64,000 bases of DNA, taken from NCBI RefSeq assembly GCF_003790525.1, contig NZ_CP033635.1, one strand, 5' to 3'. Origin of the DNA: Escherichia coli (GTDB lineage: Bacteria; Pseudomonadota; Gammaproteobacteria; Enterobacterales; Enterobacteriaceae). The notes under the pieces are model-generated. The model was not told the DNA's origin. It saw only the letters and a list, made by a program, of their open reading frames with translations, and did no database searches. A program made the translations under genes and the position numbers. Every line of letters begins with the position of its first letter. The stretch's first letter is position 1. Below are positions 5,652-40,989 of this stretch, piece by piece.

Positions 5652-5669
5652 GTGAATAATCACTTTCAC
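5652..5669. promoter_or_regulatory. Possible GalR/GalS-type operator in the galS-mglB intergenic region
   Basis: Imperfect palindrome GTGAATAATCACTTTCAC (GTGAA...TTCAC arms) about 170 bp upstream of mglB. Confidence 0.25.
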
Positions 5670-5841
5670 CGAGGTAATAGCGTCATAACAACAATTAAAG
5701 CCGTTTTCTGGAGCGTTACCGGGCATGGAAGAACGAATTTTAAAAAGTGAGCTTCGGCGTTCAGTAACACTTCATTAACTCTACTGCCCCGCCGAGCATT
5801 TATCTCAAGCACTACCCTGCATAAGAAAAACCGGAGATACC

Positions 5842-9447: not shown

Positions 9448-9462
9448 TGTGAATGTGGGTAT

Positions 9463-9513
9463 TGCCGGATGCGCTGCATCCGGCATTCGGTGCCAAATGC
9501 CGGATGTGACGCG
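9463..9513. repeat. REP/BIME element
   Basis: Two GCCGGATG-type palindromic units (TGCCGGATGCG...CATCCGGCA...) between convergent mglC and preA. Confidence 0.6.
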
Positions 9514-9517
9514 GGTT

Positions 9518-10753
9518 CTACAACGTTACCGGGTGTTCTTTCTCGCCTTTCTTAAACTTCACTTCTCCGAGATCAATACAACCCACCGGGCAGACGTGAC
9601 CACAAAGCAGACAACCCACGCATTTCTCGGTATTACAATGCGGTGTACGGGTTTTCTCGCTCCATTCCATCGCCTGGTGACCGCCGTCGTAACAGGAAAT
9701 ATAACAGCGTCCACAGCCAACACATTTATCGAGATTGATATGGGGATAGACAATATAACTGCGGTCTAAATCTTCCGCCGGGACAATATTATTATTCGCC
9801 AGACCTACCATCTCCTGCAACGAATCAAATCCCTGATCGGTGAGATAATGCGACAACCCGCTCGCCATATCTTCCACTATCCGATACCCGTACTGCATAA
9901 TGCCGGTGGTCACCTGCAACGTCGCTGCACCGAGCAATAAAAACTCCGCCGCATCTTCCCAGGTTTCAATACCGCCGATACCGCTGATCGGGAAATCGCG
10001 CAGCTCTGGATGGGTACGCATTTGCTGAATGAAGCGCAGGGCGATCGGTTTTACCGCTTTACCGGAATATCCGGAAATACTCGATTTACCGTTAACGATC
10101 GGCATACCGATTTTCTGATTAAGATCGATATTGGTGATGGATTTAACGGTGTTAATCGCCGCAATGCCATCTGCGCCGCCGCGCTTCGCCGCCAGCGCCA
10201 CTTCGCACATATCACCGATATTCGGCGTCATCTTCGCCAGCATTGGCAGCGTGGAACCACGTTTTACTGCCCGACAATATTTTTCTACCAGCTCCGGGCT
10301 TTGCCCGACATCGCTACCCATCGCATGAGAAGTCATTTGCGGACAGGAGAAGTTACACTCGATCATATCCGCGCCAGCTTCTTGCACCAGACGCGCCAGC
10401 TCTTCCCATTGCTGCTCATTTTCGCCCATGATTGAAGCGATCAATACTTTGTCCGGGTAATCTTCTTTCAGCCGACGCAGGGCGGCCAGATTCTCTTCCA
10501 ACGGATGTTCAGCAATCTGCTCCATATTTTTGAAGCCGATAAAACCGGTATCTTCTTTCACCAGATGATCAAAACGCGGCGAGACTTCGTTGGCGATAAA
10601 AAAGCCGATCGTTTTAAACACCACGCCGCCCCAGCCAGTGTCGTAGGCTTTGGCACACATCTCATAGCAGTTGCCTACCGGCGAAGAAGAGAGGCAGAAC
10701 GGGTTGGGAAACTTCACGCCGCAAAAAGTAATCGAAAGATCTTTCGTTAACAT
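9518..10753 (-). CDS. preA: NAD-dependent dihydropyrimidine dehydrogenase subunit PreA (4Fe-4S/TIM barrel)
   Basis: DHOD-like fold with C-terminal CxxCxxC ferredoxin motifs; start at MLTKDL. Confidence 0.85.
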
Positions 10754-23348: not shown

Positions 23349-25291
23349 CGCCTTTGCTCGAATTAAAGGATATTCGTCGCAGCTATCCTGCCGGTGATGA
23401 GCAGGTTGAGGTGCTGAAGGGCATCAGCCTCGATATTTATGCCGGTGAGATGGTAGCGATTGTTGGCGCTTCGGGTTCCGGCAAATCGACCCTGATGAAT
23501 ATTCTCGGCTGCCTGGATAAGGCCACCAGCGGCACCTATCGCGTCGCCGGTCAGGATGTTGCCACGCTGGACGCCGATGCGCTGGCGCAACTGCGCCGCG
23601 AGCATTTCGGCTTTATTTTCCAGCGTTACCATTTGCTTTCGCATTTAACCGCCGAGCAGAACGTTGAAGTTCCCGCCGTCTATGCTGGTCTTGAGCGGAA
23701 ACAGCGGCTGCTTCGCGCCCAGGAGTTGCTGCAACGACTGGGGCTGGAAGACCGTACAGAGTATTATCCGGCACAGCTTTCGGGTGGTCAGCAACAGCGT
23801 GTCAGCATCGCGCGGGCATTGATGAACGGCGGTCAGGTAATTCTTGCCGATGAACCAACCGGTGCACTGGACAGCCATTCTGGCGAAGAGGTGATGGCGA
23901 TCCTGCATCAGCTGCGCGATCGCGGGCATACGGTGATTATCGTCACCCACGATCCGCAGGTTGCTGCTCAGGCCGAGCGGGTGATCGAAATTCGTGACGG
24001 CGAAATTGTGCACAATCCTCCCGCCGTTGAAAAAGTGAATGCTACTGGCGGGACGGAACCTGTTGTCAACACGGCGTCTGGCTGGCGGCAGTTTGTCAGC
24101 GGTTTTAACGAGGCGCTGACGATGGCATGGCGGGCGCTGGCAGCGAATAAAATGCGTACTTTACTGACCATGCTGGGGATTATTATCGGTATTGCGTCGG
24201 TGGTTTCCATTGTCGTGGTGGGCGACGCCGCCAAACAAATGGTGCTGGCGGATATTCGTTCTATTGGTACGAATACTATTGATGTCTATCCCGGGAAAGA
24301 TTATGGCGATGACGATCCGCAATATCAGCAGGCGCTGAAGTACGACGACTTAATCGCCATCCAAAAACAACCGTGGGTCGCCTCAGCCACACCTGCCGTC
24401 TCGCAAAACCTGCGCCTGCGTTATAACAATGTTGATGTGGCTGCCAGTGCCAATGGCGTGAGCGGCGATTATTTTAATGTCTATGGCATGACCTTCAGTG
24501 AAGGGAACACCTTTAATCAGGAGCAGCTGAACGGTCGTGCGCAGGTGGTGGTTCTCGACAGTAATACTCGCCGCCAGCTTTTCCCCCATAAAGCAGATGT
24601 GGTTGGCGAGGTGATTCTGGTCGGCAATATGCCCGCCAGAGTCATTGGTGTGGCGGAAGAAAAACAGTCGATGTTTGGTAGCAGTAAAGTGCTGCGTGTC
24701 TGGCTACCTTACAGCACGATGTCCGGGCGAGTTATGGGCCAGTCGTGGCTGAACTCCATTACTGTCAGGGTGAAAGAAGGATTTGACAGCGCCGAGGCGG
24801 AACAGCAACTCACGCGTTTACTTTCACTGCGCCACGGTAAGAAGGATTTCTTTACCTGGAACATGGATGGTGTCTTGAAAACCGTTGAAAAGACCACACG
24901 TACTTTACAACTGTTTCTGACGCTGGTGGCGGTGATTTCGCTGGTGGTGGGCGGTATTGGTGTAATGAATATTATGCTGGTGTCAGTGACCGAGCGGACG
25001 CGGGAAATTGGCATTCGCATGGCTGTAGGTGCGCGAGCAAGCGATGTTTTGCAACAGTTCCTGATCGAAGCCGTACTGGTTTGCCTGGTCGGTGGCGCGT
25101 TGGGAATAACACTGTCACTGTTAATTGCTTTCACCTTGCAGCTTTTCTTACCCGGCTGGGAGATTGGTTTTTCACCGTTGGCACTGCTGCTGGCGTTTCT
25201 CTGCTCGACGGTCACCGGGATTTTATTTGGCTGGTTACCCGCACGAAATGCGGCACGACTGGATCCAGTAGATGCTCTGGCACGAGAGTAA
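23345..25291 (+). CDS. macB: Macrolide export ABC transporter ATPase/permease
   Basis: 648 aa; N-terminal ABC ATPase ([17 protein letters not shown]) plus C-terminal FtsX-like permease. Confidence 0.9.
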
Positions 25292-25302
25292 TTTTTGAGA
25301 TA

Positions 25303-25331
25303 AAAATGCCAGCCGATCGGGCTGGCATTTT
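25303..25331. terminator. Bidirectional terminator between macB and cspD
   Basis: AAAAATGCCAGCCGATCGGGCTGGCATTTTG: hairpin with A-run and T-run on either side. Confidence 0.6.
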
Positions 25332-25363
25332 GCCTTTAGGATGTACACAATGAGACAGAAGAG

Positions 25364-25588
25364 CTATGCGACTGCCGCTTCTACTTCGACGGGCACAATA
25401 ACACTGGCGTGATTGCCTTTTGGCCCCTGGTGGACATCAAACTGAACGGATTGTCCAGCTTTTAGCGTTCTGTAACCATCCATCTGAATGGTGGAATAAT
25501 GAGCGAAAATATCTTCGCCGCCGCCTTCAGGGCAGATGAAACCAAACCCTTTGGCATTGTTGAACCACTTAACAGTACCCTTTTCCAT
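25364..25588 (-). CDS. cspD: Stationary-phase cold-shock-domain protein
   Basis: MEKGTVKWFNNAKGFGFI... CSD; start at MEKGTV rather than the upstream ATG. Confidence 0.9.
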   Translation of the reverse strand: MEKGTVKWFNNAKGFGFICPEGGGEDIFAHYSTIQMDGYRTLKAGQSVQFDVHQGPKGNHASVIVPVEVEAAVA

Positions 25589-25945
25589 GCTTCGACATCC
25601 TTCGCAAATCTTATACAAGTAAGATGGAATAAACCGGGGTCAGAGAGGGGGCTGTTCAAAACCTCGCCAACTCTAGAAATACAATTTAGAGAATTAGGGC
25701 GAGCCGTCAAGCATTTGACAGGGGACAGGGGGCAGGTATGAATCAAAAATTTGAAGCAGTTAACGCTATTGACAGGAATGTGACAGATGTCGCTGATGCC
25801 AACGATAGATGATAGTTATTTATCATCTAGTGTTCGCGGGTGTTCGTGGTAGTGTTTTGTGTGCATTCATCGCTATGATTATAAAGGAAAATTTTGTTTT
25901 ACTTGTTCGCTCTTGTTCGTCACGGTTTGCCCTTGTACGATGCAC

Positions 25946-25969
25946 GGTGTAGTCAATGGTGTAGTTAAT
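25946..25969. repeat. Island attL direct repeat
   Basis: GGTGTAGTCAATGGTGTAGTTAAT; an additional GTTCGCGG(G/T)TGTTCG block at 25832-25846 is also repeated at the right end (36264-36278). Confidence 0.65.
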
Positions 25970-25992
25970 TTTGATGACCGGAAACGCGAAAC

Positions 25993-27231
25993 ATGAGCAG
26001 CGCAATTCATAGACTTAGCGACACTCTTTTACGAAAATTAAGCGGATCACCAACCACAAAAAACGCCTTTTTTAATGACGGTGGCAATCTTAGCGTAAGA
26101 CATTCCACCAGCGGCCTGTTAACCTGGTATTTCACTTACAGGGCCGGAACTGGCAGGCAGGTATCACCGGAACGCCTGAGACTGGGCAACTATCCCGATC
26201 TGAGCCTGAAAGCAGCCAGGGAAAAAGCGGCACAGTGTCGCGCCTGGCTGGCGGAGGGGAAAAATCCACGCCATGAGCTTAATCACACAGTGCAGGAAGC
26301 GTTAGCCCCCGTGACGGTTAAGGACGCGCTCACTTACTGGCTTGAGTCGTATGCGAAGGAAAAGCGCACTGACCACGAATCACTGAAAAGCCGTATCAAT
26401 AAGCACATAATCAGCCAGATTGGTGCTATGCCGCTGGATAAATGCGAGCTACGCCACTGGCTGGCCTGTTTTGACCAGCTTGCTAAGCGTAATCCGGTAT
26501 CAGCCGGCTTTTTGTTGCAGGTATGCAAACAGGCGCTTAAGTACTGCCGTAAACGTCGCTACGCCGTCAGTAACGTTCTTGATGATATGGTCGTAGGTGA
26601 TGTGGGAAAAAAAGCAGAAATAAGCGAGCGAGTGCTAACAAACAAGGAGCTTGGCGAGCTACTCCGCGCACTGGATGAAAAAATTTTCCCGCCGTACTAC
26701 AGCGCTTTAATTCGCCTTCTGATTGTCTTCGGATGCCGTACCACTGAGCTAAGACGCTCCGAGGTTCGGGAATGGGATTTTAAAGAAATGCTCTGGACTG
26801 TGCCGAAAGAACACAGCAAAACGAAGGTAGCAATATTCAGGCCAATACCGGAAGCGATCTTGCCGTTCGTCATGAAGCTGGTGGAGCAGAACAGGCACAC
26901 GGGCTTATTGCTTGGAGAACTGAAAGGGCAATCATCCGTAGCAGAGTACGGAAGAACGGCACACAGACGCATTAATCAAGCCCCCTGGTCGTTGCACGAC
27001 ATCCGGCACACATTTACAACCATGCTGAACGATTTAGGCGTGGATCCGCATATTGTCGAACAGCTTACTGCCCACCAGATGCCAGGAATGCAACGCGTCT
27101 ATAACCACTCCCGTTATCTCGATGCAAAGCGTGACGCTCTTAATCTATGGGTAGACCGTCTCGAGCTTCTCCAGAACAATGATGAAAAAATCGTTGTTAT
27201 GACCCCGCGAATTTACCCCCAAAATTCTTGA
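25993..27231 (+). CDS. int: Tyrosine integrase (P4-type)
   Basis: 412 aa; C-terminal catalytic region (...HDIRHTFTTML...YNHSRYLD) adjacent to the att repeat. Confidence 0.85.
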   Translation: MSSAIHRLSDTLLRKLSGSPTTKNAFFNDGGNLSVRHSTSGLLTWYFTYRAGTGRQVSPERLRLGNYPDLSLKAAREKAAQCRAWLAEGKNPRHELNHTVQEALAPVTVKDALTYWLESYAKEKRTDHESLKSRINKHIISQIGAMPLDKCELRHWLACFDQLAKRNPVSAGFLLQVCKQALKYCRKRRYAVSNVLDDMVVGDVGKKAEISERVLTNKELGELLRALDEKIFPPYYSALIRLLIVFGCRTTELRRSEVREWDFKEMLWTVPKEHSKTKVAIFRPIPEAILPFVMKLVEQNRHTGLLLGELKGQSSVAEYGRTAHRRINQAPWSLHDIRHTFTTMLNDLGVDPHIVEQLTAHQMPGMQRVYNHSRYLDAKRDALNLWVDRLELLQNNDEKIVVMTPRIYPQNS

Positions 27232-27650
27232 CAAATTACGGCTGTTTTTTCTTTAAGAGATTACAGCCGTGAATAGATCTTAGAATATCGGGGAATATCT
27301 GCAAATATCTTCTCTTTATATGTGTCAACTATCGAAAAAAATTGAAATGTCTTCTTCTGAGTTCTTATTCTCTGTTTCTTGATTGTTCCAACATCTGATG
27401 GTTTATCTATTTGTTTTTAATGAGGTAATTCAGGTGACATGCCAAATGACGACATTTTTTGTTGCGTCGCTTAAAAACTCGTGACACGATTTTAAACACT
27501 AACGAGCTTCTACGAACCTTAGCGAACAAAGCCTTTAGCATGGTTGTGTTTTTAATTTAAGAGGTGAAAAAGAATCTAAGTAATATCCGATCTCATATAT
27601 CTACAGCTAAGAGAAAAGTTTATATACGTAATTTTTATGTAGGTTTTTGT

Positions 27651-27860
27651 ATGCGTGAAATAAATGAAGATCGCGTAATCCGTGAGGATGAATGTCGTAA
27701 GTTAACTGGAGTGTGTCGCACTACACGCTACGAACTGGAGAAAAAAGGGAGCTTTCCGTCTCGCCGTAATCTTGGTGGGCGTTCTGTAGGTTGGCTGCTG
27801 TCCGAGGTTATGGAATGGGTTAAAAGCCGGGATCGCATTAATTCAGGCAAGGCAGCGTAA
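27651..27860 (+). CDS. alpA: AlpA-family phage transcriptional regulator (excisionase-like HTH)
   Basis: ~69 aa from MREINEDRV...; layout resembles AlpA/Vis-family proteins; position right after int. Confidence 0.65.
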   Translation: MREINEDRVIREDECRKLTGVCRTTRYELEKKGSFPSRRNLGGRSVGWLLSEVMEWVKSRDRINSGKAA

Positions 27861-27998
27861 AGGGGAGTATATGACACATAAAACAAAGGCGACCGGGGGC
27901 GGTCGCCAATGGGAAAACACTAAACATAAGCCCGAACATCATAGCGATTTGCTGGCTGGTGGGCAATGTGTCCAGTGTGGTGGCTTGCTGGTGGATTG

Positions 27999-28199
27999 TC
28001 AGCCAGGTGGGCGGTTTTTGTTTGCTTTTAAGCGCCGAGGGTATTTCTCGACAAAAGGATCAAGGGCGAACTTATCAGGAACTTTAAGATTTTCAGTGCG
28101 GGTTAATGCCTTATTTATTTCCCTGCGGGTTTTCTCACGCTGGCGCATGATAATTGATAATGCTTTATTTTGTAGTTCCTGGTTATTCATAATTATCAC
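27999..28199 (-). CDS. Hypothetical small basic protein
   Basis: 66 aa ORF directly downstream of the RHH gene on the same strand; may be co-transcribed. Confidence 0.35.
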   Translation of the reverse strand: MIIMNNQELQNKALSIIMRQREKTRREINKALTRTENLKVPDKFALDPFVEKYPRRLKANKNRPPG

Positions 28200-28247
28200 C
28201 TTTAAAACAATGCGCCGCAGTACCTCACACCACGGCGCTGATAGTGA

Positions 28248-28427
28248 TTATTCTGATTCTTTGGCCTTGCGGCGCTGGCGGTATTCAACTTCTCGCTTTA
28301 ATGCTGCTGTTACAAACTGCCCTGTACTTTCACCAGGCATTTTTACCGCCTCAACATTGTTCATAACTTCATGCGGAACCCTTGCCGCAACTGTTTGTGA
28401 TTTTGCGTTTACTGCTTTTGTCGCCAT
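28248..28427 (-). CDS. Ribbon-helix-helix (CopG/Arc-like) DNA-binding protein, 59 aa
   Basis: Hand-translated (below the 60-aa track cutoff): MATKAVNAKSQTVAARVPHEVMNNVEAVKMPGESTGQFVTAALKREVEYRQRRKAKESE; palindromic operators lie just upstream. Confidence 0.5.
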   Translation of the reverse strand: MATKAVNAKSQTVAARVPHEVMNNVEAVKMPGESTGQFVTAALKREVEYRQRRKAKESE

Positions 28428-28477
28428 GTTGTGTACCCCTTACAAAAAACAAATGCAGTATGCAGGAAAAAAAATAA

Positions 28478-28530
28478 GTGTTCAACACTTGGCGTGTTTA
28501 ACACCTAGGCTTAAATTGGTGTTCAACACC
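28478..28530. promoter_or_regulatory. Three palindromic operator-like sites
   Basis: GTGTTCAACAC (28478-28488), GTGTTTAACAC (28495-28505), GGTGTTCAACACC (28518-28530) upstream of the RHH gene. Confidence 0.45.
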
Positions 28531-29571
28531 TTGTTGATGAAAGGTGCAGAAACGACGAAACCCCGCACTGTTGGAGCAGTAACGGGGCTTCTAACCACCA
28601 ACGATAGAAAGCGTATCGAGGTAGCTATGTTAAATCATACCACACACCCGCAAGGGCGGGACCCGCACAACCTGAATAAATACATCTGGCGTTTTATCGC
28701 CCTGAGCACAGCACAACCACGCGTTATTACCATCGGGGCCACCAGCGAACAGGAAGCCCGCCAGCAATCCCCGACTGGCTGGGTGATGGTATTGGCCTCC
28801 AGATTTCATCATCGCTGTTTGTTTTTTGTCTGTCTCTCCTCGGGGTATGGGGTTGTGCCGTTCCAGCGTATGCGGGGCCGTTCACTGATGAAGCGCTCAA
28901 GCGGGAAATTATCGGATGGCGCGGGGGGCCGTACCCGTCGTTCCCGCCTCCGCTGGCGTACCACGCTGGCTTCGGTAATTTCCCCTGATTCGTTTATTTT
29001 CATAAAGAGTTACCTCCGTGCTCATCTGCTCTGGCGTTTTCTGTTTCTGATGAAGACTTACAGCGGTAGCGGCGTATCTTATCTTAAGATTTGGTTTAAT
29101 TTCTCGTGTCTGGCTTTAATGACGGCGCGTAATAATATCTGTCGCTGCTTTGTGTTTACGTCCAGAACTGTGGGGGATAATATGGATTTGTTCATGGTGC
29201 TCACCTGTAATGCATTGCGTCGTGATGCCTCATATCACGGCGGCGGTTATCGTTTTGTTCGGATTCGTCCCCTGATGAAATCCTCAAGCGGAAAATGTTC
29301 AGGGCGAGGTAATTCAGGAGGGACAGGGTTATTACTCATGCGCTCACGTTCCCTTGCGGCGCGTGCAGCATTCAGCTTTTGCAGGAGCACATCAAACGGC
29401 ACCCCCTTATCATTCATGGTCCCCCCTGTATATCCGTTGTTAACTGATGGTTACAGGTGCATTTTTCGCACAAACTATTTAATCAACACATCCGACCACA
29501 TTATCAGAGAGCCGGAATATACAGGGGCAATAATCCCGCATTTGCTGGCCTACGCACAGCTTACCGCTGAT

Positions 29572-29859
29572 ATGGCACTGAATGAGGCCAAAGCCATCCT
29601 GATTGCTGATTGTGAATATGGGGTTATGCGTGATGATCGTTTTAATGCCCTGAAACAGGAATTTGATGGCACACCGGAAGATACAGATATTGCGCTGTTA
29701 TGTGTTGCTGACATGGTAAAAGCTGCATGTTTTTTACTGGAAACCGCCGAACATTCAGGAACGGGTAGCGATATTCTCAATATTGCGTCGGACTATGCTG
29801 AATATGTGGCAGAGGCGCGTTACAGAAGAAAATTCCAGGAGGTGGTTAGCCATGAATAA
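29572..29859 (+). CDS. Hypothetical protein (start uncertain; TTG at 29542 is an alternative)
   Basis: Only protein-like portion of the long stop-free frame; ends with an AGGAGG RBS for the next gene. Confidence 0.4.
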   Translation: MALNEAKAILIADCEYGVMRDDRFNALKQEFDGTPEDTDIALLCVADMVKAACFLLETAEHSGTGSDILNIASDYAEYVAEARYRRKFQEVVSHE

Positions 29860-30025
29860 TCATGAAGCGCACTTACCTGTAGTGCTTAATGTGCCATCTG
29901 ATTATACGGGGCGCGTTTTGATATTTCTGGATAAAGGGAAAGTGAAATCGCAATGCCGCCTTAGAAATAATGAGGTTATTGGTTCTCTGGCTTTTTTTCT
30001 GAAGCCTGTATTCGCGCCGGAATAA
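29851..30025 (+). CDS. Hypothetical small protein (57 aa)
   Basis: ATG overlaps the upstream stop (CATGAATAATC) with an AGGAGG SD 8 nt upstream. Confidence 0.4.
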
Positions 30026-30055
30026 AGCCGGAATCACTGACAGGAAAATAAAACC

Positions 30056-30355
30056 ATGAAAAAGAAAAATTCTGGCTTTACTGCCAGCGGCCTCGCTCGG
30101 CCTGAAATCCGTCCCGGCTATATTTTCCGTGATAACTACGGCGGTACGGTAACGATTAAAGGCGTGGCAGAACGGCGCATCACCTACCGCCATGAAGGTT
30201 ACGAATATGATTGCGTGATGCCTGTTTATCAGTTTGTGCGTGATTTTTCTCTTGTGCAGGCCGTACCGCGTAACGTGCCCACCAGCAGGGAGAAAGCACG
30301 CGCCAATATTCAGAAGATGAAAACCATGATTAACGGATTCAGGGGTAAAAAATGA
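30056..30355 (+). CDS. Hypothetical protein
   Basis: 99 aa ORF; 4-bp overlap with the primase start. Confidence 0.5.
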   Translation: MKKKNSGFTASGLARPEIRPGYIFRDNYGGTVTIKGVAERRITYRHEGYEYDCVMPVYQFVRDFSLVQAVPRNVPTSREKARANIQKMKTMINGFRGKK

Positions 30356-32100
30356 AACTGGCACCGAACGTAAAACTGCAGTCACGCGGCATAAAACACA
30401 AAGGAACTGAAGTCATTATTTTTGCGGGTAGTGATGCCTGGGCACACGCGAAACAATGGCAGGAACATGACGCGCGTATGGCCGGAGATAATGAGCCTCC
30501 TGTGTGGCTTGGGGAGCAGCAGTTATCCGAACTGGATAAGCTGCAAATTGTGCCGGAAGGCAGAAAATCCGTGCGTATATTCAGGGCCGGATATCTTGCG
30601 CCAGTAATGATAAAGGCGATTGGTCAGAAGCTGGCGGCGGCTGGCGTACAGGACGCAAATTTTTACCCCGAAGGAATGCACGGTCAGAAGTGTGAAAACT
30701 GGCGGCGTTATCTGAATGCTGAGCGTGAAAATATTGCTGCAGGGCTTACCATGCCGGAGCAGAAAAATACGCAACTGGCACAAATGGCAGACAGTGAGCG
30801 CGCACAGATGCTTGCTGGTCGATTTGATGGCGTTTGTGTGCATCCGGAAAGTGAAATCGTTCACGTATGGCGCGGCGGGGTATGGTGTCCGGTCAGCACA
30901 ATGGAACTGAGCCGCGAAATGGTGGCGATCTATTCAGAGCACAGGGCCACTTTCAGCAAGCGCGTAATCAGTAACGCCGTGGAAGCGTTAAAAGTTATTG
31001 CCGAACCAATGGGCGAGCCGTCCGGCGATTTGCTGCCGTTCGCCAATGGTGCGCTTGACCTGAAAACGGGGGAATTTTCCCCGCACACGCCGGAGAACTG
31101 GATCACCACGCACAACGGCATTGAGTACACGCCACCAGCACCTGGGGAGAACATCCGCGATAACGCGCCAAACTTTCATAAATGGCTTGAGCACGCAGCC
31201 GGAAAAGACCCGCGCAAGATGATGCGTATATGTGCCGCGCTGTACATGATTATGGCGAACCGGTACGACTGGCAGATGTTTATTGAGGCCACCGGAGACG
31301 GCGGGAGCGGTAAAAGTACATTCACACACATAGCCAGCCTTCTGGCAGGGAAACAGAACACGGTAAGTGCTGAGATGACATCGCTTGATGATGCTGGTGG
31401 GCGTGCGCAGGTTGTCGGGAGTCGTCTTATCGTCCTGGCAGACCAGCCGAAATATACAGGCGAAGGAACGGGCATCAAGAAAATCACGGGCGGTGACCCC
31501 GTGGAAATTAACCCGAAATACGAAAAGCGTTTCACGGCTGTAATCAGGGCGGTGGTGCTGGCGACCAACAATAACCCGATGATATTCACCGAACGGGCCG
31601 GAGGTGTGGCACGTCGTCGCGTGATTTTTCGTTTCGACAATATCGTCAGTGAGGCTGAAAAAGACAGGGAGCTACCGGAAAGGATTGCGGCTGAAATCCC
31701 CGTCATTATCCGCCGATTACTGGCGAACTTTGCAGACCCTGAAAAGGCGCGGGCTTTACTACTGGAACAGCGTGACGGTGATGAAGCACTGGCGATAAAG
31801 CAGCAAACGGATCCGGTTATTGAGTTTTGCCAGTTCCTGAATTTTCTGGAGGAAGCACGTGGCCTGATGATGGGTGGCGGTGGCGATTCCGTGAAGTACA
31901 CGACCAGAAACAGCCTGTACCGCGTCTATCTGGCGTTTATGGCATACGCAGGCAGGAGCAAACCGCTGAACGTGGCTGAGTTCAGCAAGGCCATGAAGCC
32001 AGCGGCGAAAGTTTACGGACATGAATATATAACGCGCAGGATTAAAGGGGTTACGCAAACCAACGTGACAACAACAGACGACTGCGACGCGTTTTTATAG
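30352..32100 (+). CDS. P4-family phage/plasmid primase-helicase-like replication protein
   Basis: 582 aa; C-terminal NTPase with Walker A GDGGSGKST and LADQP Walker B-like motif typical of the P4 alpha / D5 family. Confidence 0.8.
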   Translation: MKLAPNVKLQSRGIKHKGTEVIIFAGSDAWAHAKQWQEHDARMAGDNEPPVWLGEQQLSELDKLQIVPEGRKSVRIFRAGYLAPVMIKAIGQKLAAAGVQDANFYPEGMHGQKCENWRRYLNAERENIAAGLTMPEQKNTQLAQMADSERAQMLAGRFDGVCVHPESEIVHVWRGGVWCPVSTMELSREMVAIYSEHRATFSKRVISNAVEALKVIAEPMGEPSGDLLPFANGALDLKTGEFSPHTPENWITTHNGIEYTPPAPGENIRDNAPNFHKWLEHAAGKDPRKMMRICAALYMIMANRYDWQMFIEATGDGGSGKSTFTHIASLLAGKQNTVSAEMTSLDDAGGRAQVVGSRLIVLADQPKYTGEGTGIKKITGGDPVEINPKYEKRFTAVIRAVVLATNNNPMIFTERAGGVARRRVIFRFDNIVSEAEKDRELPERIAAEIPVIIRRLLANFADPEKARALLLEQRDGDEALAIKQQTDPVIEFCQFLNFLEEARGLMMGGGGDSVKYTTRNSLYRVYLAFMAYAGRSKPLNVAEFSKAMKPAAKVYGHEYITRRIKGVTQTNVTTTDDCDAFL

Positions 32101-32109
32101 TTTTAGACA

Positions 32110-32345
32110 AAAGCCCTCTACCCCTTCTACCTTAAGAAAATAATTACATATATTTCATGTTGATAGATTGGGTAGATGGCAGGTAGAAGGTACTTAAAAG
32201 CCCTCTACACCCTCTACCATAATTCAGGGCATTTGTGAGGGGGTGGTAGATGGCAGGTAGAGGGCCAAAAAAGCCCTCTACCCCGCTGAAATCCGCGCCA
32301 TTACTGACCTGAAAGATGATTGTGTAGAGAGGTAGAGGAGGTGCA
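32110..32345. repeat. Iteron cluster (putative island replication origin)
   Basis: About 12 copies of CCCTCTACC / GGTAGAGGG in both orientations (e.g. 32112-32131, 32171-32190, 32199-32218, 32241-32264, 32272-32285, 32328-32342) immediately downstream of the primase gene. Confidence 0.65.
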
Positions 32346-32386
32346 CCACAACACAAAACTTTTTAAACACGAGGGTAAAAATAAAA

Positions 32387-32644
32387 ATGCACACATCAGA
32401 AAAATTTAACAATCAGAAGAAATCACATAACCGCGCCATTGACCTTACAGAGCACTGGCTGAGGGTGGCGATAAAAATCATCGACCGCAACGCGGGAGAA
32501 GGATACGCGAAAGCGCATCCCGAACTGATTAGCGCATTCATGACCACAGCGGCGGCAAACTTTGCCACGCTGACACAACGGGAGATTGCCGAAGCGGAAC
32601 AGGTAACAACCATCAACGTTAAAACCAGTGAGGTGGAATCATGA
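32387..32644 (+). CDS. Hypothetical protein
   Basis: 85 aa ORF; stop overlaps the next start. Confidence 0.45.
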   Translation: MHTSEKFNNQKKSHNRAIDLTEHWLRVAIKIIDRNAGEGYAKAHPELISAFMTTAAANFATLTQREIAEAEQVTTINVKTSEVES

Positions 32645-33051
32645 CAGCACAGATAGCGGCTTACGGGCGGCTGGTGGCTGACCCGCAGTTAAAGACCACC
32701 AGCAAGGGGACACAAATGGCGATGGCGAGTATGGCGGTCCCCCTTCCGTGCAGCCAGGCAGATGACGGAACGGCGACGATGTGGTTATCTGTGCTGGCGT
32801 TTGGCAGACAGGCCGAAGCACTGGCAAAGCACCGCAAGGGTGAACTCCTGAGCGTGGCGGGTAACATGCAGGTCAGCCAGTGGACCGGACAGAACGGGGA
32901 AACGCGGCAGGGCTGGCAGGTTATCGCAGACAGCGTAATCAGTGCGCGGACAGTGCGACCGGGCGGAAAAACACGCAAAACCACAGGCGCACAGGGGAAT
33001 AAGCCACCAGCGGGAGGCGATGGCCCCTACGGAGATGATATACCCTTCTGA
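32641..33051 (+). CDS. Single-stranded-DNA-binding (OB-fold, SSB-like) protein
   Basis: 136 aa; layout resembles the SSB N-terminal OB fold (GRLVADPQL...W..VLAFGRQAE...QW..QNGE.R); C-terminal G/P-rich tail. Confidence 0.55.
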   Translation: MTAQIAAYGRLVADPQLKTTSKGTQMAMASMAVPLPCSQADDGTATMWLSVLAFGRQAEALAKHRKGELLSVAGNMQVSQWTGQNGETRQGWQVIADSVISARTVRPGGKTRKTTGAQGNKPPAGGDGPYGDDIPF

Positions 33052-33068
33052 ATCAGGCGGGGAGCAAC

Positions 33069-33389
33069 ATGAACAACAGCACACCGAAGAACCGGACAAT
33101 AAGCGACGCGACAGCAGAAGAACTCGAGAGCAGGGGACTGTGGCGACGGGCTGCCAGAAGGTGGCAGGATGTGATGATTACTCTTCAGGAAGACAGGCAC
33201 AGAGAACTTGCGGCAATGAGAGCAAGGGAATGTATCAGGAAGGCAAAGCGCCCGATACCTGAAAACCGTTATGATGTTCACGCAGTCAGAAGGGCCGCAG
33301 ACAGGACAATACAACAGATGGGGCTACCGTCGCTTACTGATGAAATATGGCGTGATTACCCTGATAACGTAAATGATGACGGTTATTAA
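33069..33389 (+). CDS. Hypothetical protein
   Basis: 106 aa charged ORF. Confidence 0.45.
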   Translation: MNNSTPKNRTISDATAEELESRGLWRRAARRWQDVMITLQEDRHRELAAMRARECIRKAKRPIPENRYDVHAVRRAADRTIQQMGLPSLTDEIWRDYPDNVNDDGY

Positions 33390-33468
33390 CAGGCGGGGAA
33401 ACACGACACCAGCGGGAGCGACACGGGGTAGCAGATGCCGCTGGTGGAACAGCACAAAGGGGGAGAAC

Positions 33469-34053
33469 ATGACAAAGCTGACCATTAACCGAAAACCAAA
33501 AGGCATATACGGCACACCGCAGAAAAAGACGCAGGAGGCTGAACAGCCGGATAAAACCACACCAGCGCAAAAGCAGAGCCGCGAGCAGAAAACACAACAG
33601 AAGACGGCAGCAAAACGCAAATCAGAAAAGAGCCGGAAAAAAAATATCAGACGCGTTGAACGCCTTGCCGCGCTCTGGCCTGAACTTTTCAGCCAGGAAT
33701 CGCCCAGACCGCTTAAGGTTGGCATATTTGATGACCTGATGGAGGATATTACTGCGAGAGGTATTTCATTAGGTCAGGGAGCGCTTCGCGCAACGCTGGC
33801 GTATTATGTCAGTTCAGTGCGATATTACCGTTCCCTGATGGCTGGTGGCGTGCGTTACGACCTGAAAGGCCATCCGTGCGGGGAGGTGACACAGGAGCAC
33901 CAGTTGAACGCGGGGAAGCGACTGGATGAGATGAAGAAAAAACAGCAGGAGCGCAGAAACATGAAGGCAGAAAATAAGCATAACGGTAAGCCACCAGCAG
34001 GGCATAATATTATTCTGAAAAATGCCAGTTCCTCGGGCGTACGGAAAGCATAA
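33469..34053 (+). CDS. ProQ/FinO-domain RNA-binding protein
   Basis: Lys-rich N-terminus followed by LAALWPELFSQESPRPLKVGIFDDLMEDI...LRATLAYYVSSVRYYRSLMAGGVRYDLKGHPCGEV, close to the ProQ N-terminal FinO domain; start at ATG 33469 with GGGGGAG RBS. Confidence 0.65.
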   Translation: MTKLTINRKPKGIYGTPQKKTQEAEQPDKTTPAQKQSREQKTQQKTAAKRKSEKSRKKNIRRVERLAALWPELFSQESPRPLKVGIFDDLMEDITARGISLGQGALRATLAYYVSSVRYYRSLMAGGVRYDLKGHPCGEVTQEHQLNAGKRLDEMKKKQQERRNMKAENKHNGKPPAGHNIILKNASSSGVRKA

Positions 34054-34075
34054 AACCCTGACCACATGAAGAGAC

Positions 34076-34105
34076 GAAGCCGGAGTAGTCCGGCTTTATT
34101 TTTTA
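34076..34105 (+). terminator. Rho-independent terminator
   Basis: AAGCCGGAGTAGTCCGGCTTT followed by ATTTTTTAT. Confidence 0.55.
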
Positions 34106-34130
34106 TGGGTCCTTTCCGGCATGTGGACCC

Positions 34131-34300
34131 GTTACGGGGCGGCGACCTCGCGCAAAACAACTCCTTATGAAATTTTTACGGGAAATTCAGATCCGTTCTT
34201 CTTTTTTGTAAGTCATTGTGTATATTGAATTTTATTTGTTCTGAGAAAGGATCTGATAAGGCTTCGTTTCGCCTGAAAAGGCAGTTTTAAGATCCTTTCT
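34131..34300 (+). other. Lambda-type cos site (cosN plus cosB-like region)
   Basis: GTTACGGGGCGGCGACCTCGCG matches the lambda cohesive-end region (12-nt GGGCGGCGACCT at 34137-34148); downstream TTATGAAATTTTTACGGG and CCGTTCTTCTTTTTT resemble lambda cosB elements. Confidence 0.65.
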
Positions 34301-34340
34301 TAAAAAAACGGGTCATTTTCTTGCTGGAGGGGATGCTGGT

Positions 34341-34925
34341 GTGAGGGTTAACAAGAAAAAGCTGGCTGAGATTTTTGATGTTGATGTGCGGACTATATCC
34401 ACCTGGCAAAATCAGGGGCTGCCGCTGATATCAGGCGGCGGGAAAGGGAATGAAGCGATTTTTGATACGGGAAAAGCGATTGAGTGGTTCGCTCAGCGTG
34501 AGGCCGACATTGAAAATGAAAAACTTCGTAAGGAAGTCGACGATATGCGCGTGGCTGCTGAGTCGGATCTGCAGCCCGGTACGATTGATTACGAACGCTA
34601 CCGTCTCACAAAAGCACAGGCAGATGCGCAGGAACTTAAAAACGAGCGCGATCGCGGTGACGTGATTGATACAGAGTTTTGCATGTACGCGCTTTCAAAA
34701 CTGGCGAGACAGATTTCATCAATCATGGACAGCCTCCCGCTTACTATGCAAAGGAGCTTCCCACAGATGACCCCCGCCATGCTGGATGGCCTGAAAAAAG
34801 AAGTTGTCAGAGCCTGTAACGCATGCACAAAACTTGATGAAAACATCCCGCGAATGCTGTCCGATTATCTGATGGAAACTACCGGAAATGTGCCTGATAA
34901 GTTTCAGCCGGATAAAGACAAGTAA
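34341..34925 (+). CDS. Nu1-like small terminase subunit homologue (candidate packaging-redirection factor)
   Basis: MRVNKKKLAEIFDVDVRTISTWQNQGLPLISGGGKGNEAIFD...ADIENEKLRKEV...LQPGTIDYERYRLTKAQADAQELKN closely parallels lambda Nu1; GTG start. Confidence 0.75.
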   Translation: MRVNKKKLAEIFDVDVRTISTWQNQGLPLISGGGKGNEAIFDTGKAIEWFAQREADIENEKLRKEVDDMRVAAESDLQPGTIDYERYRLTKAQADAQELKNERDRGDVIDTEFCMYALSKLARQISSIMDSLPLTMQRSFPQMTPAMLDGLKKEVVRACNACTKLDENIPRMLSDYLMETTGNVPDKFQPDKDK

Positions 34926-35086
34926 CGTAGTGCACAATGACCGAAGCCAGTTTACTGACTGGCTTTCAGCGTTGCGCTGGTGGGCGTTATGCGTCAGTGA
35001 TGAACAAAAAACAATCGAAATCGACACCGAAAAATAAAACATCAAGTCATATCAATATATTGCATTGGTGGTGATAACGAATAAAA

Positions 35087-35467
35087 ATGCAAAAACTAGC
35101 CTTTTTCCGCGATGCTCCCGCCCCGTGGCAGGGCACCCCACAAGGAGGACCCGCCATCACTATGGAGGACATGACCATGACCATGACCGAGACCGAAGCG
35201 ATCGGGATAATCCGCAGTATTACCGGAATCAGCCAGCAGGCTGGCGAACAGGAGGCCACGCAGCCGGACAGCGTGATAGCCGAAAATTACGCGTGTGTTG
35301 TTGCTGAGGTGATGCGCCGTGATGGTATTGAGCTTAACGGCGTGGATATGCGCAACATACGAACCAGAGTCCTTGAGTTGCTGGCATACCGTCGCCGTTC
35401 TCAACAACGGAGGGAGAGCGCGAAAAACACTTATCAGTGGAAGAAGCCGGAACGGTTGCGGCGGTAG
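35087..35467 (+). CDS. Hypothetical protein (true start may be the internal MEDMTM...)
   Basis: 126 aa ORF; last protein-like ORF before the right att. Confidence 0.4.
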   Translation: MQKLAFFRDAPAPWQGTPQGGPAITMEDMTMTMTETEAIGIIRSITGISQQAGEQEATQPDSVIAENYACVVAEVMRRDGIELNGVDMRNIRTRVLELLAYRRRSQQRRESAKNTYQWKKPERLRR

Positions 35468-36293
35468 ATTCCTGATATTCAGGAAAACCACGAATCCGGG
35501 GGTTTTACTGGCGCGGTGTACACGGTGGAACGCATAGCGTTACCTGACTTATTGCATTGTAAAAAGTTAGAAAGGCACGGCCTGTAAGATGGGATGTTGT
35601 GAGTAGTTTAAAGCTACCCGCAAATTCTTTCGTTGTGCTGGCACAGGCGGTTAAACCGTCGGTAACTGGATAATCCCCACTGGGGGAAAAGCTGGCTACA
35701 TCCCTCACATCTGAGGACTGATAATGCGACATTGCGCTGGCTGGTGGGTGAGTTGCAGATTTGCAACTCGACCATGAAACTACGGAAACTACCCGTAGTT
35801 TGGGTAGTAAGAGTAACACCCAGATTTTGGGGCTTACTCGCGATACCCAAATAAAGGGTATCGGTGGAAGAAATATCGTTTCTCATATGTAAGTACCGAG
35901 GGCGGAATTCCGCCTTCGGTTACTTATTGTGCTCATTCACAGGGAGGGGCGGGTCAAATCTCTGTACCCTGACGTCTTCAGGACTGCCCGCCCCATCGAT
36001 TTTTTATACCCGCGAAAAATGAAAAACGCTTCACGCTGGTGGGCCTGATGCCGATATGGGGAGCCGCATACCGGAGAATATCCACCAGCACGGCAACAGC
36101 AGAATAGCCCCGACACAGAAAAACCACGAATATGGGGTTTTTGTTATGGCATGGTCATGATGACCGCCCCTGCTCTGAATGGTGGAAATCACCACGCAGA
36201 TCATCCACCAGCTTCATGACGGATAGCCGGAAAATGATAATGATTAAAGCGTGTTGATCTTTGTTCGCGGTTGTTCGATATTGTTCGTGAAGC

Positions 36294-36317
36294 GGTGTAG
36301 TTAATGGTGTAGTTAAT
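36294..36317. repeat. Island attR direct repeat
   Basis: GGTGTAGTTAATGGTGTAGTTAAT, 23/24 identical to attL. Confidence 0.65.
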
Positions 36318-36488
36318 ATCACTGTTTTTGACGGGCTTGTTATTTGCAACATAATGAAAAATAAAGACTAATTAACTAAATGATATAAGATAGTTATCTA
36401 TCATGTGGAGTAGATTGGTCAGGCAAATAAGCTCTTGTCAGCGGCAGGGCGTTCTGCCGATAACCGTAACCGAAGATGATAACTGACA

Positions 36489-36809
36489 ATGGGTAAAACG
36501 AACGACTGGCTGGACTTTGATCAACTGGCGGAAGAAAAAGTTCGCGACGCGCTAAAACCGCCATCTATGTATAAAGTGATATTAGTCAATGATGATTACA
36601 CTCCGATGGAGTTTGTTATTGACGTGTTACAAAAATTCTTTTCTTATGATGTAGAACGTGCAACGCAATTGATGCTCGCTGTTCACTACCAGGGGAAGGC
36701 CATTTGCGGAGTCTTTACCGCCGAGGTTGCAGAAACCAAAGTGGCGATGGTGAACAAGTACGCGAGGGAGAATGAGCATCCATTGCTGTGTACGCTAGAA
36801 AAAGCCTGA
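36489..36809 (+). CDS. clpS: ClpA adaptor protein ClpS
   Basis: 106 aa; [21 protein letters not shown] motif. Confidence 0.95.
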
Positions 36810-36839
36810 ATGCAGGCATAAAAATTGGGGGAGGTGCCT

Positions 36840-39116
36840 ATGCTCAATCAAGAACTGGAACTCAGTTTAAATATGGCTTTCGCCAGAGCGCGCGAGCACC
36901 GTCATGAGTTTATGACCGTCGAGCACTTGTTACTGGCGCTGCTCAGTAACCCATCTGCCCGGGAGGCGCTGGAAGCGTGTTCTGTGGATTTGGTTGCGCT
37001 CCGTCAGGAACTGGAAGCCTTTATTGAACAAACCACACCCGTTCTGCCTGCCAGTGAAGAGGAGCGCGACACACAGCCGACGCTGAGTTTTCAGCGTGTA
37101 CTGCAACGTGCGGTCTTCCATGTCCAGTCCTCCGGTCGCAATGAGGTTACCGGTGCAAACGTTCTGGTCGCTATTTTTAGCGAACAGGAGTCGCAGGCGG
37201 CATATCTGTTGCGTAAACATGAAGTCAGCCGTCTCGATGTGGTGAACTTTATCTCTCATGGCACGCGTAAAGACGAGCCGACACAGTCTTCTGATCCTGG
37301 CAGCCAGCCAAACAGCGAAGAACAAGCTGGTGGGGAGGAACGTATGGAGAATTTCACGACGAACCTGAATCAGCTTGCGCGAGTGGGCGGAATCGACCCA
37401 CTGATTGGTCGTGAGAAGGAGCTGGAGCGTGCTATTCAGGTTCTCTGCCGTCGCCGTAAAAACAACCCGCTGCTGGTGGGGGAATCTGGTGTCGGTAAAA
37501 CCGCGATTGCGGAAGGTCTTGCCTGGCGAATTGTTCAGGGCGATGTGCCGGAAGTGATGGCTGACTGTACGATTTACTCTCTCGATATCGGTTCTCTGTT
37601 AGCGGGCACTAAATATCGCGGCGACTTTGAAAAACGTTTTAAAGCGTTGCTCAAGCAGCTGGAGCAGGACACTAACAGCATCCTGTTTATTGATGAGATC
37701 CACACCATTATCGGTGCGGGTGCAGCGTCTGGTGGTCAGGTCGATGCGGCTAACCTGATCAAACCGTTGCTCTCCAGCGGTAAAATTCGCGTAATTGGTT
37801 CGACAACCTATCAGGAGTTCAGCAACATTTTCGAGAAAGACCGTGCTCTGGCGCGTCGCTTCCAGAAAATTGATATTACTGAACCGTCGATCGAAGAAAC
37901 TGTTCAAATCATCAATGGCCTGAAACCGAAGTACGAAGCGCACCATGACGTGCGTTATACCGCAAAAGCGGTGCGTGCAGCGGTAGAGCTGGCGGTGAAA
38001 TACATTAACGATCGTCATCTGCCGGATAAAGCCATTGACGTTATCGACGAAGCGGGCGCTCGCGCACGCCTGATGCCGGTAAGCAAACGCAAGAAAACCG
38101 TTAATGTGGCGGATATTGAGTCTGTGGTGGCCCGTATTGCGCGCATTCCAGAGAAGAGTGTTTCGCAGAGTGACCGCGATACCCTGAAAAACCTCGGCGA
38201 TCGCCTGAAAATGCTGGTCTTCGGTCAGGATAAAGCCATTGAGGCGCTGACTGAAGCCATTAAGATGGCGCGTGCAGGTTTAGGTCACGAACATAAACCG
38301 GTCGGTTCGTTCCTGTTTGCCGGTCCTACCGGGGTCGGGAAAACAGAGGTGACGGTACAGCTTTCGAAAGCTTTGGGCATTGAGCTTCTGCGCTTTGATA
38401 TGTCCGAGTATATGGAACGCCATACCGTCAGCCGTCTGATTGGTGCGCCTCCGGGATACGTTGGTTTTGATCAGGGGGGGCTGCTGACCGATGCGGTCAT
38501 CAAGCATCCGCACGCGGTACTGCTGCTGGACGAAATCGAGAAAGCGCATCCGGACGTGTTCAATATTCTGTTGCAGGTGATGGACAACGGTACGCTGACC
38601 GATAACAACGGACGCAAAGCGGACTTCCGTAACGTGGTATTGGTGATGACCACCAACGCTGGGGTACGAGAAACTGAGCGTAAATCGATTGGTCTTATCC
38701 ATCAGGACAACAGCACCGATGCGATGGAAGAGATCAAGAAGATCTTTACGCCGGAGTTTCGTAACCGTCTCGACAACATTATCTGGTTCGATCATCTCTC
38801 CACCGACGTGATCCATCAGGTAGTGGATAAATTCATCGTCGAGTTGCAGGTTCAGCTGGATCAGAAAGGTGTTTCTCTGGAAGTGAGCCAGGAAGCGCGT
38901 AACTGGCTGGCCGAGAAAGGTTACGACCGGGCAATGGGCGCACGTCCGATGGCGCGTGTCATCCAGGACAACCTGAAAAAACCGCTCGCCAACGAACTGT
39001 TGTTTGGTTCGCTGGTGGACGGCGGTCAGGTGACGGTTGCGCTGGATAAAGAGAAAAATGAGCTGACTTACGGATTCCAGAGTGCACAAAAGCACAAGGC
39101 GGAAGCAGCGCATTAA
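36840..39116 (+). CDS. clpA: ATP-dependent Clp protease ATP-binding subunit ClpA
   Basis: Two AAA+ modules ([16 protein letters not shown]); start at MLNQELE. Confidence 0.95.
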
Positions 39117-39399: not shown

Positions 39400-39487
39400 T
39401 GGCGGTGAGGGGGGGATTCGAACCCCCGATACGTTGCCGTATACACACTTTCCAGGCGTGCTCCTTCAGCCACTCGGACACCTCACC
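39400..39487 (-). tRNA. serW: tRNA-Ser (anticodon GGA)
   Basis: Reverse complement reads GGTGAGGTGTCCGAGTGG...CCTGGAAAGTG...GGTTCGAATCCCCCCCTCACCGCCA; long variable arm. Confidence 0.9.
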
Positions 39488-39740: not shown

Positions 39741-39962
<222 letters not shown>

Positions 39963-40243
39963 ATCCTCTGGGGTATCACTACCGTAATTTGAACCGGCAA
40001 GATAATGCCGAAGTTCTGTAAATAAGTAAAGATTTGCGCGCTAAATCGCAACAAACAGGTTCGGCACATTACTCCGAAAACACACGGCTAAGCCGCACCA
40101 AAAGCGCAACGTATAAGGGAGCGGTGAGATAAACGATGGGCGTTACCTGACGCGAAAAATTCCTTATCGGCAGCGGGGTAATGAGCGTAACCAACTCTGC
40201 GACCGCAATTATAACACTCTGGGGAGAAATGTGCCGAAAACAT

Positions 40244-40948
40244 TCATTCTTGTGGTGAAAACAAGCACCGTGGTACCCAGAAATTATTCGGCAATCGTCC
40301 GAGGCGCATTTGATTGAGATAATTTAGATAATCCCGGCGGGGAATTTCGCAGGCACCAAGCGAAGCTGTGTGATCGTTAAGGACCTGGCAGTCGATAAGC
40401 TTACCGCCATGACCAATAAATTCCTCACAGAATACCAGAAGCGCCGTTTTAGACGCATTTTCCATCCGGCTGAACATGGACTCGCCACAAAATAGCGTTC
40501 CCTGGGCCACGCCGTACATACCGCCGACAAGCTCATCTTCACGCCAGACTTCAATAGAGTGGGCATGACCGAGTTCGTGAAGGCGATGGTAGGCTTCGAC
40601 CACGCCACGCGTGATCCAGGTTCCTTCTTCGCGATCGCTGGCACAGCCTTCAATGACCTGACCAAAAGCGTAATTCATCGTGACTCGATAGGGCGAGCGT
40701 TTATGAAATCGCTTCATACTACGGCTGATATGCAGTGATTCTGGCCATAGCACCGCGCGGGGATCGGGCGACCACCAGAGGATGGGGTCGCCTGGAGAAA
40801 ACCACGGAAAAATACCACGCTGGTAAGCCATTAACAGGCGCGCAGGGCTAAGATCGCCCCCCAGTGCCAGCAGGCCGTTAGGCTCACGTAATGCGCCTTC
40901 CGGGGAAGGGAAGGCTATTGAATGGCGAGAAAGCTGAACCAGGCGCAT
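40244..40948 (-). CDS. aat: Leucyl/phenylalanyl-tRNA--protein transferase
   Basis: 234 aa; synteny with infA and cydC. Confidence 0.9.
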
Positions 40949-40989
40949 GACCGCAAAACTCCACGCAAGTCGGATCGTTCAATAATAGC

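Follow-up and report, generated by a model that had tools for sequence, protein, structure and literature searches.

Does the insert that separates cspD from clpS in the Escherichia coli contig NZ_CP033635.1 (assembly GCF_003790525.1) represent a mobile phage satellite and, if so, where does it end and how would its DNA reach a phage head? The 64,000-nucleotide stretch of this contig that was analysed is hereafter called the window. An original prediction, made from the letters alone, had placed between the two genes a satellite of about 10.4 kb, either a phage-inducible chromosomal island (PICI) or P4-like, running from 25946 to 36317 and bounded by 24-bp direct repeats. The insert is very probably a PICI of Gram-negative type with a mosaic relationship to the published EcCIIHE3034; it would have been integrated into the core ATGATAGTTAT, where yljB ends and upstream of clpS, by the arm-binding tyrosine integrase that it encodes itself. 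A mobile satellite of PICI type between cspD and clpS is thereby borne out by empty sites, by the gene set and by published PICIs at the same site, whereas the predicted ends and size are not.

The ends of the island were defined by aligning both insert ends with an empty junction, that of K-12. In this strain, cspD, yljB and clpS are contiguous without any insert, as the original prediction had stated for cspD and clpS, with the precision that yljB lies between them. In the window, the PGAP annotation reads macA, macB, cspD and yljB, followed by 16 island coding sequences (one of them flagged as a frameshifted pseudogene) and then by clpS and clpA, the left flank being core genome. On the left, the sequence follows the host up to 25826, and on the right the match to the host restarts at 36389; a query starting at 25650 loses its match in empty-site genomes at query base 177, which corresponds to position 25826. 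A 16-bp core, GATAGTTAT(T/C)TATCAT, is duplicated at both ends (25811-25826 and 36389-36404), so that the element measures 10,578 bp. The sole mismatch between the core copies is a T in attL, where attR and attB have a C, and the crossover is placed by these sequences to the left of the mismatch, within (AT)GATAGTTAT. Besides, attB holds the inverted repeat ATGATAG-TTAT-CTATCAT. The comparison with an uninterrupted region that had been proposed to define attB thus yielded this core, and the statement that the nearby serW tRNA gene is not used as att site holds, the junctions lying at the 3' end of yljB upstream of clpS.

The 24-bp direct repeats do exist, at 25946-25969 and 36294-36317, and are identical at 23 of 24 positions. 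However, they lie inside the element, about 120 bp from its left end and 72 bp from its right end, and are therefore not the duplication left by the att crossover. Each of them consists of the 12-mer GGTGTAGTYAAT repeated twice in tandem. Seven (G/T)TGTTCG boxes with an exact 10-bp spacing were found close to both ends, in agreement with the additional shared TGTTCG-type blocks already mentioned in the prediction, and they make up 7 of only 18 such boxes in the whole window. Both the doubled 12-mer and the TGTTCG boxes are invariant in two relatives whose spacers have diverged. Since the boxes are phased and rare, since the motifs are invariant in relatives and since the integrase possesses an Arm-DNA-bind_3 domain, these motifs would be arm-type attP sites for the binding of Int and AlpA. 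That the repeats are instead the true att sites, with an element spanning 25946-36317, is scarcely credible: besides their near identity, this reading could draw on Table S1 of Fillol-Salom et al. 2018, in which the 'att core' of EcCIDI14 is printed as CGGTGTAGTTAATGGTGTAGTTAATT, that is, as the doubled arm 12-mer of the present island, but neither repeat occurs in the empty site of K-12, the match to host DNA stops and resumes at the core copies given above, and the core published for this site is ATGATAGTTAT, so that it is refuted by the empty-site alignment. As the core printed for EcCIDI14 is an internal arm motif here, the published boundary of that island may rest on the same confusion as the original prediction.

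Prevalence was estimated in 5426 complete E. coli genomes, 5424 of which matched the junction query: the yljB-clpS junction is uninterrupted in 5058 and yljB is joined to the present integrase in the other 366. The gene block is therefore mobile and not core to all E. coli. At least 80% of the present island was found in only five of the 5426 genomes, and the interval originally claimed matches E. coli TUM1886 at 100% along its full length. As to whether the att site is spared by prophages, one of the features given for Gram-negative PICIs by Fillol-Salom et al. 2018, the four examples inspected among the 366 occupied genomes were all PICI-like. In the same line, Fillol-Salom et al. 2018 gave cspD-clpS as the site and ATGATAGTTAT as the core of two PICIs, EcCIIHE3034 and EcCI18098 (their Table S1), an insertion site and an att core that are those of the present island, and reported a low but detectable transfer of the tagged forms of both (their Table 1). 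The insertion site itself is thus already known for PICIs, and the island is a rare mosaic addition to a described family.

The gene content leads to the same assignment. The integrase, alpA, primase, iterons, single-stranded DNA-binding protein (SSB), ProQ/FinO-like protein, cos and Nu1-like gene that had been predicted were all recovered by profile and sequence matches (Table 1), and the predicted small regulator corresponds to a minus-strand protein of the YlcI/YnfO family. Membership was assessed with the SatelliteFinder core set (Moura de Sousa et al.), checked against the annotated and scanned genes. Four of its five components are present (integrase, alpA regulation module, primase-replicase and small terminase), while no capsid-like open reading frame (ORF) was found for the capsid-morphogenesis component and the annotated or scanned ORFs include no tail, holin or cf-PICI gene, which are the components that the definition forbids. 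The island would therefore be a PICI of 'Type B', which the SatelliteFinder authors still count as a PICI. It does not qualify as a cf-PICI, since an own capsid, portal, protease, head-tail connectors and TerL are absent from the annotated and scanned ORFs, among which no tail or lysis gene was seen either. The iterons lie directly 3' of the primase gene, an origin layout that is the same as that of PICI origins in the features given by Fillol-Salom et al. 2018.

Three published systems help to situate the island. With EcCIIHE3034, it has 64% of its length in common at 79-96% identity (94% over the integrase-alpA-arm region, 91% over ylcI-icd, 88% over the replication zone and 96% at the right end), and both islands have the same cosQ-cosN and the same 94-aa gene after TerS. 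They differ in that the place of PerC and FinO/ProQ is taken in EcCIIHE3034 by a major capsid protein and a gene for head decoration, and in that the stretch from icd to DUF4222 is about 1.2 kb longer in the present island. EcCICFT073 displays the same order of int, alpA, primase, origin, accessory gene (perC) and cos, also has two cos sites with a cosN identical to that of lambda, and is packaged in phage-sized heads with lambda or phi80 as helpers. However, it is inserted at ycfD-phoQ, has no terS and encodes an Rpp protein of 144-153 aa that is devoid of the TerL-binding C-terminus and must pair with the helper TerS, and its cosB is without R2 or R1 whereas that of the present island has the full R3-I1-R2-R1 set. 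Finally, the helper-embedded satellites (HES) of the preprint by Tommasini, Mageeney & Williams 2022 have the same integration, Bro/immunity, replication and late zones, and the abstract of this preprint describes a doubled motif in attP regions, as in the island. The HES are embedded in prophages, whereas the island is chromosomal and its 'Bro zone' gave no Bro-N domain, C4 or isrK hit.

Table 1. Coordinates of the island features within the window, with the matches and motifs on which each assignment is based.
Feature	Position	Strand	Remarks
attL core GATAGTTATTTATCAT	25811..25826	+	overlaps yljB stop codon; empty-site match ends at 25826; published core ATGATAGTTAT
Putative left attP arm	25830..25969	+	GTGTTCG at 25830 and 25840; TTGTTCG at 25903 and 25913 (10-bp phasing); doubled 12-mer GGTGTAGTCAAT-GGTGTAGTTAAT at 25946-25969
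Tyrosine integrase, 412 aa	25993..27231	+	N-terminal arm-binding domain; PHROG 1; Pfam Phage_integrase and Arm-DNA-bind_3
AlpA-family regulator/excisionase	27651..27860	+	Pfam Phage_AlpA PF05930, 4.5e-16
662-codon stop-free frame	27871..29859	+	starts 10 nt after alpA stop; antisense through minus-strand genes including ylcI
Hypothetical small ORF, 66 aa	27999..28199	-	followed by minus-strand terminator-like hairpin 27907-27888
YlcI/YnfO-family small protein, 59 aa	28248..28427	-	own minus-strand terminator-like hairpin 28238-28212
Icd-like segment	28681-28806	+	within 662-codon frame
phrog_2512 segment	29497-29859	+	within 662-codon frame
phrog_340 ORF			between phrog_2512 segment and DUF4222 gene
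DUF4222 protein	30056..30355	+	phrog_285
P4-family primase/replication initiator, 582 aa	30352..32100	+	phrog_864, 1e-168; TIGR01613, 108.3 bits, just below the 108.7 cutoff
Replication origin	32109..32340	.	about 11 copies of CCYTCTACC / GGTAGANGG in paired blocks; AT-rich stretch at about 32133-32168
Conserved hypothetical protein	32387..32644	+	phrog_1231
SSB	32641..33051	+	
PerC-family regulator, accessory	33069..33389	+	
FinO/ProQ-domain RNA chaperone, accessory	33469..34053	+	followed by terminator-like hairpin 34076-34097
cos1	34107..34300	+	cosQ-like GGGTCCTTTCCGG 34107-34119; cosN GGGCGGCGACCT 34137-34148; R3 AGATCCGTTCT 34189-34199; IHF-like site 34209-34221; R2 (inverted) 34244-34254; R1 AGATCCTTTCT 34290-34300
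Full-length Nu1-family small terminase (TerS), 194 aa	34341..34925	+	PF07471, 3e-75; N-half lambda-like, C-half PICI-type
cos2, inverted cos-like site, 164 bp	34993..35156	-	cosQ-like block; cosN-like GGGCGGGAGCAT at 35112-35123
Conserved 94-aa protein	35183..35467	+	phrog_1561; follows TerS-like gene in relatives L003, L009 and L010
Putative right attP arm	36261..36317	+	TTGTTCG at 36261, 36271 and 36281; doubled 12-mer GGTGTAGTTAAT x2 at 36294-36317
attR core GATAGTTATCTATCAT	36389..36404	+	85 bp upstream of clpS start codon

Regarding packaging, the island couples a lambda-type cos site (cos1) to its own small terminase, without a TerL gene after terS. The cosN of cos1 matches the lambda 12-mer exactly, lambda and PhiR5_1 both retain the cosQ block GGGTCCTTTCCGG and the GTTACG that directly precedes cosN, and homology to phages starts exactly at the cosQ block to stop within terS. 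Three copies of the R-box AGATCC(G/T)TTCT are located 53-63, 108-118 (inverted) and 154-164 from cosN, with the IHF-like site at 73-85; the phage 21 annotation gives R3 at 50-65, I1 at 74-86, R2 at 107-122 and R1 at 150-166. The layout (cosQ, cosN, R3, IHF site, R2, R1) and its spacing are thus the same as in phage 21 and lambda, whereas the R-boxes of lambda read GTTTCC and those of the island AGATCC. The TerS protein aligns with the Nu1 Pfam model from position 1 to position 161 out of 164, and its identity to lambda Nu1 is about 70% over residues 1-98. Its closest phage counterpart is the TerS of PhiR5_1 (about 70-71% identity, against 54-58% for those of lambda and 21), and it aligns with all three through their C-termini, with a 13-aa C-terminal extension common to other PICI TerS proteins. 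Rpp proteins are 139-154 aa long, with a winged-helix DNA-binding domain and without the C-terminal region that was proposed to bind TerL (Murialdo and Feiss); given the length of the island TerS (194 aa), its coverage of the Nu1 model and an RppC match of only E=0.008, the island is not a cos PICI of the Rpp type.

Comparison with EcCIIHE3034 reveals how this module was assembled. The cosQ-cosN segment and the C-terminal 100 residues of TerS are common to the two islands, with about 85% protein identity, but the intervening cosB and N-terminal half of TerS are unrelated (34153-34612 of the window versus 9216-9574 of the EcCIIHE3034 locus, L010). Because these two parts differ while their flanks are conserved, the DNA-binding half and its target site must have been exchanged as a unit. 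A recombination joint lies near a conserved AQELKNERDRGDVIDTEFC stretch. Among the 5426 genomes, the cassette formed by cosB and the TerS N-half is present in only three, and the C-terminal half in about 740. Searches of the EcCIIHE3034 TerS against PDB gave no link to Rpp or Nu1, so that its DNA-binding domain is neither of Rpp nor of lambda type. As for the helper, a relative (L009) with a 97% identical terS 3' half and the same late-zone genes sits in the portal gene of a lambda-type prophage, which points to lambda-type helpers.

A second, inverted cos-like site (cos2) lies between terS and the 94-aa ORF and has 85% identity with the sequence that immediately precedes terS in phage mEp460. 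Sequences resembling cos2 occur in 1265 genomes, and TUM1886 has a second cos2-like place along with three further terS/cos-like places. The idea that cos2 is served by the TerS family of the island was rejected, the mEp460 TerS being unrelated to that of the island. In the same slot, EcCIIHE3034 carries an inverted cos that is like that of phage 21, whereas that of the present island is like that of mEp460; cos copies of different helpers therefore seem to be exchangeable in the slot after terS, and cos2 would let a second helper family package the island by means of its own TerS.

By analogy with EcCICFT073, the cycle of the island could proceed as follows. A lambdoid helper would switch on alpA, AlpA would drive excision and the rightward operon, and the primase would copy the circle from the iterons into concatemers. 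The island TerS would then bind its own cosB and recruit a helper TerL of gpA type to the shared cosN, the satellite DNA being packaged as multimers in phage-sized heads. AlpA-dependent induction has been published in the PICI family, and four units of the island amount to 42.3 kb, or about 87% of the lambda genome, which is consistent with the packaging of Gram-negative PICIs as phage-sized concatemers. Nevertheless, several points count against this picture. Induction, excision and transfer of the present island are all inferred, and the published transfer of tagged EcCIIHE3034 was only weak. No helper prophage is present in the flanks within the window, and none was located in the host genome. 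Several genes lie on the minus strand, against the 'unidirectional rightward' rule of Gram-negative PICIs, the main genes being rightward. Moreover, the R3 box shares TCCGTTCTTCT with lambda R3, so that lambda Nu1 might recognise cos1 too, and the characterised E. coli cos PICI uses Rpp and the helper TerS and not a TerS of its own.

These last two points feed the most serious of the other explanations, according to which the island is a PICI wholly dependent on the helper TerS, its own TerS being mainly an interference factor that poisons the helper terminase, as Rpp or Ppi. EcCICFT073 does require the helper TerS, with which Rpp heterodimerises, and mixed dimers are plausible for the island since the dimerisation region of its TerS is about 70% identical to that of lambda Nu1. 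However, the C-terminal segment absent from Rpp proteins is retained in this TerS, which is accompanied by three cognate R-boxes in lambda geometry, and the explanation is consequently judged unlikely, if still worth serious consideration. Far less probable is that the cos-Nu1 segment is the remnant of a decayed lambdoid prophage lying beside unrelated genes in an immobile locus. The lambda-like cosQ, cosN, cosB and Nu1 would fit such a remnant, as would the presence of the exact version in only 3-5 of the 5426 genomes, but the phage homology is confined between the cosQ block and terS, with no gpA, head, tail, lysis or immunity genes after it, all the island ORFs except one are intact, as are the att cores and the arm motifs, and the backbone follows the conserved PICI layout of hundreds of genomes.

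A P4-like satellite that would exploit a P2-type helper and have its capsid remodelled by Sid, Psu and Delta appears even more improbable. The size of about 10 kb and the int, alpA/vis, icd/eta-like leader and alpha-type primase are common to the island and P4, and in this respect the 'P4-like' part of the original prediction stands as a shared ancestry of int, alpA, icd and primase, and of these only. On the other hand, no island ORF matched sid, psu, delta (the psu-delta-sid operon) or epsilon in PHROGs, NCBIfam or Pfam, the cos is of lambda type with a Nu1 TerS, and the SatelliteFinder authors consider that int, alpA and primase alone cannot separate P4-like satellites from PICIs. A Rfam scan of 25000-37000 at E<=1 detected no C4, isrK or other immunity RNA, its sole match being a sub-threshold one of cspA type over cspD, and P4-type RNA immunity is therefore unsupported. 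Assignment to the Gram-negative PICIs is thus retained.

A side observation concerns the long stop-free frame after alpA. Whereas this frame is open over its 662 codons, each of the other five frames of 27871-29859 contains 22-49 stops. Resampling of synonymous codons in the four minus-strand ORFs left it open in only 0.6% of trials, and shuffling of the 715 nt lying outside these ORFs and the recognised plus-strand coding sequence in none of 5000. A search with the frame retrieved 763 proteins at E<=0.001, and the best 120 of them include many E. coli 'Icd-like' proteins of about 360-500 aa with only about 60% identity. For two of these proteins, a detailed comparison showed some 300 or more open codons of the frame before the Icd motif. 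At four of five inspected loci, a single frame extends from alpA or a Bro gene to the icd stop, and at the remaining locus 13 nt separate its stop from the icd start. Taken together, these data suggest that the frame appears to be selected to stay open. In P4, the eta ORF is translationally coupled to an alpA homolog and its translation prevents termination (Tommasini, Mageeney & Williams 2022 preprint); by analogy, the 662-codon frame may be an eta-like, translation-dependent antitermination device. On the opposite strand, ylcI and the 66-aa ORF are each followed by a terminator-like hairpin. The minus-strand ORFs at 28809-29003 and 29247-29417 are not claimed as genes, the short motif common to them being weak (E=0.04-0.08).

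If these elements are brought together, the island would embody a third route of cos piracy in Gram-negative bacteria. A chimeric full-length TerS, made of a lambda-type DNA-binding half swapped in with its matching R3-I1-R2-R1 cosB and of a PICI-type TerL-binding half, would recruit the helper TerL without the helper TerS, with the inverted 'mimic' cos for use by a second family of helpers. Openness of the 662-codon frame would be maintained because ribosomes translating it protect the transcript against early termination before the replication genes are reached, as with eta in P4, the FinO-like chaperone acting on the antisense transcripts that cross the frame. Considered as a whole, this combined scheme is put forward tentatively, as a possibility that has the odds against it.

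Concerning the accessory genes, PerC genes are common in Gram-negative PICIs. The neighbouring FinO/ProQ-domain protein, which matches ProQ (4e-18) and FinO (2e-15) in PDB, is a satellite cargo adjoining the PerC regulator, and a limited literature search turned up no publication dealing with FinO-domain proteins of E. coli PICIs. The 94-aa protein encoded after terS had no match in Pfam or PDB sequence searches. Between this ORF and the right arm, about 800-900 bp (35468-36260) are without a recognisable gene and without any Rfam or PHROG match, and a PHROG scan of the five minus-strand ORFs in 35468-36388 found nothing. This region holds a perfect GC-rich hairpin at 35895-35920 and two similar AAAACCACGAAT...GGGGTTTT elements at 35480-35506 and 36116-36142. 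A PADLOC scan of ten small or unknown ORFs returned no credible match to defence genes.

Beyond the island, a separate island occupies the right part of the window (about 39400-64000), past serW (tRNA-Ser, 39400-39487). It contains a tyrosine integrase (about 39813-41021) and a type I restriction-modification system in which darT-darG is embedded (about 58704-60424). Other genes there code for a YfjI-family protein, an inovirus-type Gp2 and an M48 peptidase, one gene of 4.9 kb has an AAA domain, and a TOTE primase-domain pseudogene and an IS66 fragment are present as well. On the left, the RefSeq annotation has, at about 5589-6827 and flanked by ybjQ and ybjP, a pseudogene for a truncated pentapeptide-repeat protein.

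As regards boundary calling, doubled arm motifs located inside an element can pass for att repeats, and it is the comparison with an empty site that decides. For the satellite family, the island adds a rare mosaic variant, found in 3-5 of the 5426 complete genomes, to a well-described group and leaves the general picture of PICIs unchanged. The swap of cosB and of the DNA-binding half of TerS as one cassette on a constant TerL-binding half, and the match of the slot after terS to different phages in different islands, both suggest tests of helper switching. Finally, if its proposed role is true, the 662-codon frame would link PICI regulation to the translation-dependent antitermination described for P4.

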